This document shows, in pieces, positions 27,551-33,860 of a stretch of 64,000 nucleotides of DNA (positions are counted from its first letter, which is position 1; each line of letters opens with the position of its first letter). A model generated the notes under the pieces. The model saw nothing but the letters and a program-made list of their open reading frames with translations. It ran no database searches and was not told the DNA's origin. The stretch is from an uncultured Spirochaetales bacterium (GTDB lineage: Bacteria; Spirochaetota; Spirochaetia; JABEVK01). The DNA is taken from NCBI GenBank assembly GCA_964475005.1, contig CAYYUZ010000003.1, positions 3,500-67,499 of the forward strand, read 5' to 3'. The translations under genes were made by a program, and so were the position numbers.

Positions 27551-27971
27551 TATCTTGCTGTGTGCTTTTCGGGAAGACCTTAACAAGAGACAACGGAGAG
27601 GAAAAATCACCGCCCGCTACGCTCAAGGGCGCATAGGAACGCCGAGGGAAGACGAAGAGCGGAAGAAGGGTTAGAAGAACTCTCGTATTCAAGTTTTCTT
27701 TGTGTACTTGGCGGCTAGCGTCCCGTCAAGTGGTGTAAGAGTGGTGGTCGACCAGTTTCCGCAGATAGTGCGGACCTCCCCAGGGACCACCCTGCAGCCA
27801 AGGAACGGTTTGGTGTCAGGCAAGCGCAGAATCTCTTTCTGGCTTCAAATCGCTGAGGAAAGACACTTGCTCGGCCGTCTTCAGGTTATACGAAGCGAGA
27901 TTATTCGGATCTTTTTGTTTTTTTCTCAAATACTTTGACTTAAAGCACTTGAAGTTTCTAGCTTGTAAAGT

Positions 27972-28385
27972 ATGAAGAACGACTTGGAAAACAGCGTGAT
28001 CTTTGGCAAAGGTGATTCAAATCCCTTTGGGCAATATTTCAGTGGACAAAGTTATCTGAACATCCTTACTCGCGAAGGTGTCTTGACGGCCAATGTCACC
28101 TTTGAGCCTGGATGTCGAAACAACTGGCATATCCACCAAGCGACTGAAAAAGGCGGACAGATCCTGCTCGTTACTGGTGGAAGGGGTTGGTATCAGGAGT
28201 CAGGAAAAGCGGCGCGGGAGCTCATCGCCGGAGATGTCGTTCATATTCCATCTGGTATCAAACACTGGCATGGTGCTGCCCGAGACAGTTGGTTTGTCCA
28301 TATCGCGATTGAGATTCCTGGGGTCGGTGCGAGCACCCAATGGCTAGAACCAGTGTCTGACGCCGAGTATGGGAAGTTGAAGTAA
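27972..28385 (+). CDS. Cupin-2 domain protein
   Basis: 137 aa; cupin motifs NWHIHQATEKGGQILLVTGG and HIPSGIKHWHGA; markedly lower GC than its flanks. Confidence 0.6.
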   Translation: MKNDLENSVIFGKGDSNPFGQYFSGQSYLNILTREGVLTANVTFEPGCRNNWHIHQATEKGGQILLVTGGRGWYQESGKAARELIAGDVVHIPSGIKHWHGAARDSWFVHIAIEIPGVGASTQWLEPVSDAEYGKLK

Positions 28386-28401
28386 AGGCGAAGGAGAAAA
28401 C

Positions 28402-28976
28402 ATGGACACGACAGTTCTTAACAATGGTGTCGTCATGCCGCTGCTCGGGTACGGCGTCTATCAGGTCAACCCAGACGACTGCGAGAGATGTGTTCTCGAT
28501 GCCGTTTCGGTAGGGTACCGCCTCATCGACACGGCTCAGGGCTACTTCAATGAAGAGGCTGTGGGTAAAGCGATGGTGGCCTGCGGCATTCCGAGAAGCG
28601 AACTATTCGTCACCACCAAGGTGTGGATCGAGCACTATGGTTTCGAGAAGGCCAGATCGAGGCGTGGGCGCCGTTTGGGGAAGGCCGCAACGATATGTTC
28701 GGCAATGCCGTGCTAAACCAGATTGGCGCAAAATACGGCAAATCGGCCGCCCAGGTGATTCTCAGATGGCTGGTTCAACGCGGGGTCGTGGCCCTGGCAA
28801 AATCGACGCGAATCGAGCGAATGCGAGAGAACTTCGCCATCTTCGACTTCACCTTGTCAGAGCAGGATATGACCCTGATTCAAACCCTGGATACGGCCAA
28901 GAGTCTGTTCTTCTCGCATCAAGATCCAGCGACGGTCGATTTCTTTGTCGAGCTGGTCAAGAAGCGAAGACAATAG
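28402..28976 (+). pseudogene. Aldo/keto reductase remnant (internal deletion and frameshift)
   Basis: ORF 28402..28716 encodes an AKR N-terminus (LLGYGVYQV...IDTAQGYFNEEAVG...LFVTTKVW). ORF 28623..28976, in another frame, encodes an AKR C-terminus ([16 protein letters not shown]...[36 protein letters not shown]). The roughly 80-aa central part (catalytic Lys/His region) is missing. Confidence 0.6.
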
Positions 28977-29001
28977 TCGGACGGGCAAGGAGGAAGAGCG
29001 A

Positions 29002-29463
29002 TTGAGTACCATTTCAACGGACAGACTCTATTCCATCAAAGAGGCTTCACAGCTGACGGGCTTACCCGCCAGCACTCTTCGCTACTACGAGACCATCGGG
29101 ATCATTGAACCTGTGGCCCGCGGAGATACGAGCGGTCACCGGCAGTACACCCAAGAAATGCTCAACACCATCGACGCTGTCGCCTGTCTCAATGCCACCG
29201 GGATGCCCCTAGACGAGATGCGCGAGTACCTGAACAACCGCAGCCGGGGCTCCAACGCGGCCGATGCGGTGATCCAGCTCCTAGAAGCCCACGAACGGAG
29301 ACTGAAGACCGAACAAATGTTCTTGAAACTGCGCAAACAGTACGTCGGCCTCAAGATCGCGTATTGGAAGGCCGTCAAAGCCGGTGACCAGGCTCAGGTT
29401 AAGCAGATTGGGGAAATGGCGCAAAAGCTGGCTCATGACCTCAAGTTTCGGCAAGACCTTTGA
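29002..29463 (+). CDS. MerR-family transcriptional regulator, AdhR-like (thiol-based aldehyde sensor candidate)
   Basis: MerR HTH (YSIKEASQLTGLPASTLRYYETIGII). Start assigned to TTG at 29002, with AAGGAGGAAG RBS 6 nt upstream. Single Cys in AVACLNATGM at the position of the sensing Cys of Bacillus AdhR. A Zn-ADH follows directly. Confidence 0.65.
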   Translation: MSTISTDRLYSIKEASQLTGLPASTLRYYETIGIIEPVARGDTSGHRQYTQEMLNTIDAVACLNATGMPLDEMREYLNNRSRGSNAADAVIQLLEAHERRLKTEQMFLKLRKQYVGLKIAYWKAVKAGDQAQVKQIGEMAQKLAHDLKFRQDL

Positions 29464-29540
29464 ACTGTATTGCGGCAGCCAAGATCTCGATTGGCCGACC
29501 ACGTTGAAGTCATTGAAAACTGACAAGTAAGGGAGACTCG

Positions 29541-31999: not shown

Positions 32000-32348
32000 A
32001 TCGATCGACCCAAGACCGGAGAAGGAAGGATGTGATTCCCTCGTTGTCTTATTGTCGATCACTTGGCATCTCACGAACTGGCTCCATGGAACATGAGTCG
32101 CCAATCAGACCGCCAACGCATGTTCTGAGCATCGACGCGGTTCGAGGAAGGAAGAGAAGTATCTGCCCTTGCGGAGCTTAGGGATCTTCAGGTTCAGCCA
32201 CCCATCCTGGTCTGAAGACCTCGGCCTCCATGAGCTTTTGAAGAACAAACTATCCTAGCTGCGGTAGCAGGTCGCCCCCGGTGTGATTCCATTCTGCCTC
32301 AATCATTGCCGACCGGCGACAGTCAACCAATTGGGGAGACTCTTACAC

Positions 32349-32605
32349 CACTCCAGCGGTTCTGCCCTTGAGTGAGCGAAGCGATTTCCGCTGAAACCCT
32401 TTCTGCTGATGCTTTTTCACTTTCAGCATCTGCTGAAACGAATTCTCCTGATGAAGATTTGTCCTCTTCATCTGCTGAACGGGTTTCTCCTGATGAATGT
32501 TTGGTTTCAGCATCTGCAGAATTGAATTCTTCAGATGAAGTTTTCCTTTCGACATCAGCTGAACGTCCGTCAGCACATGCTGAAACAAATTCTCCTGATG
32601 AATTT
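32349..32605. repeat. Degenerate tandem repeat array, about 5 copies of a 40-57 bp unit with internal palindrome TCAGCAtcTGCTGA
   Basis: Units (TCAGCATCTGCTGAAACGAATTCTCCTGATGAAGATTTGTCCTCT and variants) read directly. AT-rich. Both strands give repetitive ORFs judged non-coding. Confidence 0.6.
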
Positions 32606-32660
32606 TGCCATTTTCCGGTTTTTTCACAAGAGGCAACGGAGATAGCGAAGAAGACCGAAC

Positions 32661-32727
32661 CACGGATAAACACGGATTCACACGGATGGGAAAAGGATCA
32701 ATCGGTGTTGATCCGTGTCCATCCGTG
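32661..32727. repeat. CACGGAT direct-repeat triplet plus nested inverted repeats
   Basis: CACGGATaaaCACGGATtcaCACGGATgg ... GGATCAA-tcggtg-TTGATCC ... CCATCCGTG, just past the stop of the convergent PilZ-like gene. Confidence 0.55.
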
Positions 32728-32798
32728 GTGAATCCCCCTTTCTGCCCATCCACTGTGTTCCTCTTCTCCGATGACTCCGCGTTCTCTTGTTCAGAATC

Positions 32799-33860
32799 TC
32801 AGGGCGTAGGACTCTCGGCTTCGACCTTTGGCCCTTCCTGGGCCTCCTGCACCTTCTGTTTCATGTACGCGATCAGACGGCTCTTGGTCGCTATGTCGAG
32901 ATACAGGAAAAGCAGACCGGCCTCATTCGTGCCTGAGCTTGTCATGAAAGCCTGCGACGGGACGACTTCGATGGGACCGAAGGCCCAATTGCGGGTGGCG
33001 CCTCTCTCCCCAAAAATCAACTGGTAGATCTGCCCCTTCTTCAAGGGCCGACCGACCTGCACTCGCACGCCTTCCAGACTCAAGTCAAGAACCTTCACAG
33101 TCTCGTTGAACGTGGTGCGAGGGTCGGCGATCGACCCCGACGCGTTGTCGAGCCCGATGCGCGAGTAGCGGCGGCCTGCTGTCAGAACCACCTCTTCGGG
33201 TTTGCGCAGAAACAGGCCGACGTCGTTGCGCACGTCGGTGATGACCGTCGATCCCTGAAGGAAATTCTTCCCCACGTTGTAGTTGAGCTGAAGAGCCGTT
33301 CCCTTTTTGAGAAACTCAGGAATCGGCGGACGGTATTCGACAACGATGTGTTTGCCGGTGATTTCAAGCACCTTGGATTTGATCAAATGCAGGGTTCCCG
33401 CCGTCGGGAAATCAAGCTCGATGTCGAAGCCCTCCTCGAGGGGATAGTTCTGATTGATGAAATCTTCAACTTCCTTTTCGGTGGTCTTCATCCGGTGAAG
33501 CTCGTAGAAAAAGAACTCAGAGTACTTCTCAAGAACCGACGACGGAACGGCTTGCGCCGAGCCCTCATGGTGCCGGAACTCGTTGATCAGTTCTTGAATG
33601 CGTTTTTGCTGGAGAGGGTTGAGCCGGCCGACCGCAGGAACGTACTTGGCACGGATCGGCGCGTCAGACCCCTCGGCCATGCCGGGTCCCCGTTTCTGGA
33701 AGCGCTTCTTGGCGTTGCCGTAACGTTGAACCAGGTACCACACCCCGACTACAAGGCCAATAACAACAAAAAAGCCAACAATGAGACCGATATTTCCGCC
33801 GCCCCCGCTGGAACTGAAGCCTTGGGCAAATTGGTTTTGCCAGGCGCCGCCATCATTCAT
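32799..33860 (-). CDS. Membrane-anchored PilZ-like domain protein
   Basis: Start trimmed to MNDGGAW (AGGTGGGGG RBS). Gly-rich segment, one TM helix, then a cytoplasmic domain with RRYSRIG...DNASGS resembling the PilZ RxxxR / (D/N)xSxxG c-di-GMP motifs (imperfect). Confidence 0.4.
   Translation of the reverse strand: MNDGGAWQNQFAQGFSSSGGGGNIGLIVGFFVVIGLVVGVWYLVQRYGNAKKRFQKRGPGMAEGSDAPIRAKYVPAVGRLNPLQQKRIQELINEFRHHEGSAQAVPSSVLEKYSEFFFYELHRMKTTEKEVEDFINQNYPLEEGFDIELDFPTAGTLHLIKSKVLEITGKHIVVEYRPPIPEFLKKGTALQLNYNVGKNFLQGSTVITDVRNDVGLFLRKPEEVVLTAGRRYSRIGLDNASGSIADPRTTFNETVKVLDLSLEGVRVQVGRPLKKGQIYQLIFGERGATRNWAFGPIEVVPSQAFMTSSGTNEAGLLFLYLDIATKSRLIAYMKQKVQEAQEGPKVEAESPTP

Follow-up and report, generated by a model that had tools for sequence, protein, structure and literature searches.

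Why does the DNA directly downstream of recG in an uncultured spirochaete differ from its surroundings, and is it of foreign origin? We addressed this question in a window of 64,000 nt, the whole stretch of DNA analysed here, from a spirochaete known solely from metagenomes (all positions are window coordinates). An earlier note on this window had proposed that 27560-32800 is an AT-richer, horizontally acquired stress-resistance islet inserted after recG. Our analysis places it within a longer gap between recG and a gene of the GH20 beta-hexosaminidase family, a variable region in which genes of foreign type stand beside genes of native type. Within the gap, 27935-31999 reads best as one horizontally acquired, MerR-controlled operon for carbonyl/electrophile detoxification, a reading to which we give a probability of about 0.68. 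Horizontal acquisition is the best explanation for 27.9-32.0 kb, but does not extend to the PilZ-like and metallo-beta-lactamase (MBL) genes further right, which look native.

The gene content was assigned by Pfam and NCBIfam searches and is as had been noted. On the plus strand, a predicted MerR-type promoter/operator (27935-27964; -35 element, dyad and -10-like hexamer) is followed by a Cupin_2 gene (27972-28385; 137 aa), a decayed aldo-keto reductase (AKR) gene (28402-28976; Pfam Aldo_ket_red on two fragments, 28402-28716 and 28623-28976), merR (29002-29463; Pfam MerR_1; 153 aa from a TTG start), the zinc-dependent alcohol dehydrogenase (ADH) gene adh (29541-30590; Pfam ADH_N and ADH_zinc_N; 349 aa) and the DHA2-like major facilitator superfamily (MFS) gene mfs (30590-31999; 469 aa). 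A self-contained MerR-ADH-MFS module had been recognised here. That module is real and recurs elsewhere, but the unit also includes the cupin gene and the dead AKR gene; the conserved promoter lies upstream of the cupin gene and not of merR or adh.

Synteny places this unit in a larger insertion or deletion. In the closest sequenced relative, 'Spirochaetes bacterium bin_199' (L001; labels L001-L184 denote the compared loci and contigs) the order dnaE-yggT-recG-GH20 is contiguous, with 45 bp from the recG stop to the GH20 start. In the window the left flank is the core gene recG (25463-27550, plus strand; Pfam DEAD, Helicase_C, RecG_dom3_C and RecG_wedge), and the right flank is the GH20 gene (34626-35951, plus strand; Pfam Glyco_hydro_20, E = 9e-97), whose product is 74% identical to that of L001 12139-13461. 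The RecG protein is 86% identical to that of L001, 64% to that of a Spirochaetales metagenome-assembled genome (MAG) and about 50% to those of many Treponema and Spirochaetaceae MAGs; even at about 50% identity its homologues are spirochaetes only. All 80 of the spirochaete loci compared contain recG, with dnaE-yggT-recG widely conserved among them, and none carries the island genes within 10 kb of it. Since L001 has GH20 45 bp after recG and the island genes are absent from the 80 loci, 27551-34625 is an indel relative to L001. An indel at 27.5-32.8 kb had been anticipated; it exists, but runs further, through 34625. In the outgroups (L002, L003 and others) recG is followed by genes unrelated to these, and synteny therefore cannot decide between gain here and loss in L001.

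As the source is a metagenome-assembled genome whose composition shifts at the junctions, foreign reads might have been chimerically joined to a spirochaete contig during assembly or binning. This is refuted by four independent metagenome contigs from other samples (L087, L088, L089 and L117), which are 99.99-100% identical to the window and together cover both junctions, the AKR frameshift and the repeats; L087 extends from the dnaE 3′ end through an SBBP beta-propeller ORF, yggT, recG and the operon into the PilZ-like gene, L088 extends from merR to past GH20, and L089 and L117 overlap too. The sequence is therefore not an assembly artefact, and we attach next to no credence to that explanation. 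Moreover, the gene calls of the identical contigs, together with orthologues, corrected three starts: merR to the TTG at 29002, the PilZ-like gene to 32799-33860 and the MBL gene to 33982-34629.

The composition of the block is shifted, as the earlier note had expected. No other 5241-bp interval has a GC content as low as that of 27560-32800, which is 0.555; the window as a whole averages 0.596, and the next-lowest non-overlapping interval has 0.561. The dip is modest and uneven, and is due mainly to the left spacer (0.489), the cupin gene (0.502) and the right spacer (0.498); the low left spacer and cupin gene had been singled out correctly, but adh (0.608) and mfs (0.586) are of average GC. 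Third-position GC (GC3) lies at 0.51-0.70 in the six operon reading frames, whereas 43 core genes have a median of 0.744 (Mann-Whitney p = 2e-5); the cupin gene is lowest in the block at 0.514. The tetranucleotide distance peaks, with z about 2.1-2.4, over 27.5-29.5 kb and again over 31-34 kb. Codon usage appears to have converged partly on the host (GC3 of 0.67 in adh against 0.74 in core genes), and the acquisition would therefore not be recent.

Affinity was read from the named entries among the best 120 homologues of the ADH and the best 120 of the MFS protein. The nearest named ADH homologues, at 67-73% identity, belong to Ktedonobacteria, Thermogemmatispora, Thermomicrobiales, Capsulimonadaceae (Armatimonadota) and Asgard archaea, whilst the nearest named MFS homologues, at 57-69%, come from Actinoplanes, Dactylosporangium, Micromonospora, Nocardioides and other Actinomycetota, with one Phyllobacterium at 55%. 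No spirochaete name occurs in either set of 120. Both genes therefore appear to have the foreign affinity that had been suspected, towards Chloroflexota for the ADH and Actinomycetota for the MFS protein. No single donor can be named, because the two point to different named phyla.

Contigs encoding close ADH and MFS homologues show the operon to be one permutation of a recurrent cluster, present in unrelated genomes. ADH orthologues of 74-85% identity are found in clusters with MerR, AKR, cupin and MFS genes. The order is MerR-ADH-MFS-cupin-NmrA in L095/L096 (ADH 74%, MFS 73% and MerR 54% identical), MerR-ADH-cupin in L091, MerR-ADH in L093, AKR-NAD_binding-ADH-MFS in L094 (ADH 85%, MFS 76%), ADH-MFS in L097 (91% over the ADH C-terminus, MFS 80%), AKR-AKR-ADH-CMD-cupin-SDR-flavodoxin in L084/L085 (ADH 85%, AKR 67-79%, cupin 61%) and AraC/AKR-ADH in L081/L090. 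The ADH-MFS pair is kept in L094, L095/L096 and L097. These clusters lie in genomic backgrounds of 43-67% GC, and in each the ADH gene has a GC3 that tracks its host, from 0.37 to 0.89; the cluster has therefore spread over very different lineages and had time to adapt to them. Its partners are NAD(P)H-dependent carbonyl/quinone reductase types together with CMD/AhpD-like and cupin proteins, which is the usual content of electrophile-stress regulons. No close plasmid-borne ADH was found, the best being 58% identical and all below 60%.

The regulator points in the same direction. The merR gene is preceded by an AGGAGG Shine-Dalgarno sequence and encodes an N-terminal winged helix-turn-helix (Pfam MerR_1, E = 9.3e-16; MerR, E = 2.3e-11). 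Its best PDB match is Haemophilus influenzae NmlR (HiNmlR; 5d8c/5d90/5e01, E = 2.5e-10), and the 153-aa product can be aligned over its full length with the HiNmlR chains of 128-137 aa, with no second Cys or His cluster and no C-terminal effector or metal-binding region. Its sole cysteine, Cys62, is invariant in four orthologues and aligns with HiNmlR Cys54 in phmmer (avaCLnatGM versus llqCLkntGM). The conserved cysteine (HiNmlR Cys54, AdhR Cys52) defines the NmlR/AdhR subfamily (PMC5001606, PMC4776306) and is needed for formaldehyde activation in HiNmlR and Bacillus subtilis AdhR (PMC5001606, PMC4776306, PMC11577753). The regulator is NmlR/AdhR-like, a relative of the characterised proteins in a sister group and not an equivalog.

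A candidate operator for this regulator lies in front of the cupin gene. It consists of a -35 element TTGACT (27935-27940), a dyad ACTTAAAG-CA-CTTGAAGT (27938-27955) and a -10-like hexamer TAGCTT (27959-27964), and the cupin ATG, which has no Shine-Dalgarno sequence, follows 7 nt past the hexamer. The consensus TTGACTTAAAGyrCTTkAAGT, in which the dyad ACTTAAAG-N2-CTTkAAGT overlaps the -35 element, occurs 36-37 nt before the first ATG in 4/4 of the MerR-bearing clusters (the window, L091, L093 and L095), with the ATG 6-7 nt after the -10. The motif directly precedes merR in L091, L093 and L095 and the cupin gene in the window, where, compared with the other three, the cupin-AKR pair occupies the gap between promoter and merR. 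The dyad has one match at up to 3 mismatches in the 64-kb window against 0.09 expected. The embedding of a -35 element in the operator is regarded as a peculiarity of NmlR regulons (PMC5001606); no NmlR motif appears in PMC5045206.

Two characterised systems invite comparison. The B. subtilis regulator AdhR (YraB; adhA-yraA, yraC) has a single essential cysteine, controls a Zn-dependent ADH and responds to formaldehyde or methylglyoxal (PMC4776306, PMC11577753), and AdhA, a Zn-ADH, and YraC, a CMD protein, belong to its regulon (PMC4776306, PMC11577753). The window shares with it a single-Cys MerR/NmlR regulator beside a Zn-dependent ADH, and a CMD-family gene like yraC is found in the related L084/L085 clusters. 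In contrast to the AdhR system, the window operon has no DJ-1/PfpI protease and has in addition a cupin gene, a dead AKR gene and a DHA2 MFS pump; moreover, its regulator is predicted to be co-transcribed within the operon, whereas AdhR forms a separate unit. With NmlR of H. influenzae and Neisseria (adhC-estD) it shares the equivalent of Cys54, the lack of a C-terminal sensor region and a predicted operator dyad overlapping the -35 element. However, its ADH falls outside the glutathione-dependent class III (AdhC) enzymes, estD is missing, and its promoter is unidirectional and apparently leaderless, whereas that of NmlR is a divergent overlapping pair. The operon is an ordinary small, probably acquired gene cluster, of the NmlR/AdhR-type kind already known, and not a new system or mechanism.

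The products of the remaining operon genes were compared with known families and structures. The cupin aligns over its full length with the bacterial Mn-cupin hydroxynitrile lyases (HNLs) GtHNL (4bif) and AcHNL (4uxa) and with TM1010 (2f4p), at E = 1e-19 to 3e-26 (2f4p, E = 3e-26; 4bif, E = 4e-21). Its NCBIfam match to MandnitrLy (NF049940, (R)-mandelonitrile lyase) scores 113.8 bits, below the equivalog cutoff of 140, so that activity cannot be inferred from it. It is 61% identical in amino acids to the cupin of the L084/L085 cluster, and the cupins of the sister clusters lie at 38-61%. The ADH has its best PDB matches among broad-substrate ADHs (4cpd, E = 3e-56; 5yln, E = 1e-45). The mfs product matches Pfam MFS_1 at E = 7e-53 and TIGR00711 at 202 bits, short of the cutoff of 230; about 13-14 hydrophobic segments were counted in a rough hydropathy analysis, compared with 14 in the DHA2 subfamily, and homologues carry the JGI name 'EmrB/QacA subfamily'. 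For adh and mfs, which had been proposed to be translationally coupled, stop and start overlap by one base (TAATG). The AKR gene, merR and adh each have a Shine-Dalgarno sequence.

The AKR gene is a pseudogene, as had been read from the sequence, and the lesion is simple. Alignment by MAFFT to the intact AKRs of L084, L090 and L094, as well as blastn, revealed one 280-nt internal deletion after about 28651. Since 280 = 3x93+1, 93 codons are gone and the frame is shifted; the identical lesion is present in L087. In L081 (8289-9963, and also in L082 and L083) an ADH orthologue of 85% identity is preceded by an intact AKR gene and two AKR fragments (169/125 aa and 65 aa). Decay of an AKR gene next to this ADH has therefore occurred more than once.

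By analogy with AdhR and NmlR, we propose that a MerR-type promoter, with a dyad operator overlapping its -35 element, would drive the cupin gene, the truncated AKR gene, merR, adh and mfs as one leaderless transcript running from about 27972, the cupin ATG, through mfs. The regulator, having no sensor domain, would sit on the operator, and modification of Cys62 by a reactive carbonyl or other electrophile would turn it from repressor into activator. The induced Zn-ADH would then reduce or oxidise the aldehyde, the cupin may contribute chemistry of an unspecified kind, and the DHA2-type pump would remove the compound, or what the ADH makes of it, from the cell. The AKR has dropped out of this set through the 280-nt deletion.

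Several observations weigh against this reading, some touching the origin of the operon and others its regulation. The GC content of adh and mfs is close to the genome mean, the outgroups do not polarise the indel, and as the ADH and MFS proteins differ in named phyla, these genes need not have arrived together. The best-matching contigs (ADH 83-96%) are of unassigned taxon and some could be spirochaetes. There is no integrase or transposase domain in the scanned ORFs, no clean target duplication and no tRNA in the 64-kb window. As for regulation, the best NCBIfam match of merR, NmlR (NF041849), reaches 67.1 bits against a cutoff of 175, and of the HiNmlR DNA-contact residues Tyr17, Arg20, Phe21 and Lys24 one in four is identical (here Ser, Arg, Tyr and Thr). 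The spacer between the -35 and -10 elements is 18 nt (best -10 TAGCTT or TACACT), compared with the 19-20 nt typical of MerR promoters. Lastly, with 95.8 bits against a cutoff of 544 for TIGR02818 (adh_III_F_hyde), the ADH does not count as a class III enzyme (AdhC).

Much of this would also be expected if 27551-34625 were ancestral in the clade and L001 had deleted it cleanly, the low GC then reflecting the spacers and gene-specific constraints. Such differential loss would sit well with the absence of mobility genes, tRNA and att sites and with the near-average GC of adh and mfs. Synteny with L001 is already broken immediately beyond dnaE and GH20, a sign that this lineage often undergoes rearrangement, and the ADH relatives at 83-85%, an identity comparable to that of RecG with L001 (86%), lack a taxon assignment. 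Moreover, the PilZ-like gene is of spirochaete type, and the MBL gene, whose end overlaps the start of GH20, resembles core genes in GC3. The explanation falls short on the operon itself. All six of its frames have a GC3 of 0.70 or less against 0.744 in core genes (p = 2e-5), and the ADH is 70-73% identical to proteins of Chloroflexota and the MFS protein 64-68% to those of Actinomycetota, whereas RecG is about 50% identical between spirochaete families. The GC content of the backgrounds in which the ADH orthologues at 83-85% lie (51%, 59% and 67%) varies too much for one clade, and 0/80 spirochaete recG loci have these genes nearby. We consider differential loss of the whole segment unlikely, yet for the PilZ-like and MBL part alone it may well hold. 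For the operon, composition and affinity together lead us to infer gain in the window lineage rather than loss in L001.

The operon is flanked by two spacers, the right one unusually rich in repeats. The left spacer (27551-27934; GC 0.49) has no detectable gene, and its ORF 27702-27938 has no Pfam match. The right spacer (32000-32798; GC 0.50) contains an inverted-repeat arm, an array, a direct-repeat copy and a hairpin. Gene remnants were sought in both spacers by tblastx and blastn against all compared loci, and the operator alone was matched. The repeat structures that had been pointed out at 32349-32727 are real and comprise an array of 42-nt period with a 21-nt sub-period (32381-32602; TRF score 125; families D1 and D2) and a hairpin with 29-nt arms (32659-32729; I1; CACGGAT/ATCCGTG). 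The segment 32330-32760 folds far more stably than shuffled sequence, with z = -4.6 for the plus strand and z = -5.6 for the minus strand. No Rfam family was found in the repeat region, either in the whole window at the gathering threshold or in 27.5-34 kb at E <= 5.

The array matches identical DNA (L117) in a metagenome scan, together with 17 single chance matches in unrelated sequence, and its motif is absent from the 80 spirochaete loci; it thus appears private to this species. It is also rich in short dyads, among them TTTCAGCA-TC-TGCTGAAA and GATGAAGA-N7-TCTTCATC. Two interpretations of the array were rejected. Its CUGAUGA...GAAAC strings recall a hammerhead ribozyme, but there are 3 extra nt between stem II and GAAA and no Rfam match. 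It could be read as coding for 14-aa repeats, but its ORFs have a GC3 of 0.27-0.30, or 0.52 in a third frame, against 0.74 in real genes, values incompatible with coding in this genome, and tblastx gave a low-complexity match only. We therefore treat the array as non-coding.

The hairpin, in contrast to the array, appears to represent a class of dispersed repeats that is widespread. Its arm consists of three CACGGAT units at 10-nt spacing, and 91 instances of this pattern occur in 67 stretches of viral-classed IMG/VR contigs (L118-L184) of 46-68% GC. A contig often has several of them (as many as 5 in 11 kb); AACC frequently stands in front, and in 16 cases an inverted ATCYGTG partner lies downstream. 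As the pattern fixes 21 bases, it should very rarely be matched by chance. A text search of the literature for CACGGAT/ATCCGTG returned primer lists only and no description of the repeat. Lying between the convergent mfs and PilZ-like genes, the hairpin could serve as a bidirectional terminator.

Two repeat pairs connect the spacers: a perfect 14/14 inverted repeat (27729-27742 and 32339-32352; E = 0.001 between spacers) and an 18/20 direct repeat (27580-27599 and 32623-32642; E = 0.004 between spacers and 0.076 window-wide by blastn-short), the spacer-against-spacer values being computed over 421 x 799 nt. Both are symmetric around the operon and array, and neither occurs elsewhere in the window or in the 1.28 Mb of window and compared loci. 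They invite the reading that the operon is the remnant of a transposon-like or plasmid-derived element whose ends are one of these pairs, with the 21/42-nt array, of low GC and with a sub-period of two helical turns as in iteron arrays, as an iteron-like remnant; repeats of the hairpin's class, moreover, are abundant in contigs classed as phage. However, there is no transposase, integrase or rep gene, the inverted-repeat arms end at 14 nt without a target-site duplication, and the direct repeat has E = 0.076 when set against the whole window. Neither repeat recurs in the sequence compared, the array is species-private, so that no family backs an iteron role, and the plasmid-borne ADHs are all below 60% identical. 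We therefore hold a mobile-element origin to be quite improbable, and regard the two pairs as possible recombination scars rather than att sites. The earlier note had found no integrase, tRNA or direct-repeat boundary, and we likewise found none that convinces; the 18/20 direct repeat brackets the operon and array only, not the whole indel. The gap between recG and GH20 is rearrangement-prone, with no mobility machinery left.

The block shares with small genomic islets lacking mobility genes its presence/absence relative to a sister, its composition shift, its stress-resistance cargo and its core-gene flanks. Unlike these, the indel mixes foreign-type and native-type genes and is better called a variable region than a single island; on present comparisons we regard the PilZ-like gene and the MBL gene as native-type occupants of the same gap, with the foreign-type cargo limited to 27935-31999. 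The PilZ-like gene (32799-33860, minus strand; 353 aa) is convergent with mfs; the ORF call of 446 aa over-extends, and the start follows the gene calls of L088 and L089. Its match to Pfam PilZ is below threshold (E = 0.0017), and the product is a single-pass membrane protein with a hydrophobic segment at residues 26-44. Its family of 36 proteins forms a smooth identity ladder from 68% to 43%, the sole named member is 'PilZ domain-containing protein [Spirochaetales bacterium]', and the neighbours of its homologues differ in every genome examined. The MBL gene (33982-34629, plus strand; 215 aa) matches Pfam Lactamase_B_3 (E = 5e-26) and NCBIfam PRK00685 (93.5 bits against a cutoff of 144). Its GC3 is 0.764, it shares 4 nt (ATGA) with the beginning of GH20, and it is absent beside GH20 in L001.

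The window has a second extra block relative to L001 besides 27551-34625, in the dnaE-yggT gap. This is the SBBP beta-propeller ORF (23165-24793, plus strand; 542 aa), which scores 102 bits against a cutoff of 400 for the NCBIfam LipL53-family lipoprotein. Neither L001, in which 23 bp separate dnaE from yggT, nor any other compared locus has this ORF; a tetranucleotide deviation peak (z = 2.4) falls at 23-25 kb. Elsewhere in the window, 55001-57500 has the highest GC (0.65-0.66) and a tetranucleotide z of about 2, and contains three consecutive plus-strand ORFs (55078-57886). The deviation reaches z = 2.55 at 58.5-60.5 kb, where two near-full-length ORFs of 558 aa (minus) and 548 aa (plus) overlap at 58784-60460; the minus frame, with a GC1 of 0.81 and a GC3 of 0.50, is probably a shadow of the plus-strand gene. 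A glycine riboswitch aptamer (RF00504; 51 bits, E = 1.6e-7) lies at 9852-9971 on the plus strand, upstream of a 369-aa ORF (10075-11184).

More speculatively, clusters with the near-invariant leaderless TTGACTTAAAGyrCTTTAAGT promoter could form the regulon of a distinct MerR subfamily (MerR, Zn-ADH, MFS, cupin and AKR/NmrA-like genes), moving across phyla as a promoter-plus-genes cassette without mobility genes of its own. We hold this to be doubtful. As the cupin is HNL-like, its target might be a specific electrophile class, e.g. aromatic aldehydes or cyanohydrin-derived carbonyls, and the 42-nt array and CACGGAT hairpin could mark a recombination scar or act as a terminator or insulator.

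For the spirochaete itself, these findings explain a compositional anomaly of its genome and amend its gene map in three starts, a single-deletion AKR pseudogene and the position of a promoter. More broadly, they document a compact NmlR/AdhR-type operator-plus-gene cassette across very different genomes, with a predicted binding site and a putative sensing cysteine, and this cassette could aid the annotation of carbonyl-stress regulons in uncultured bacteria.

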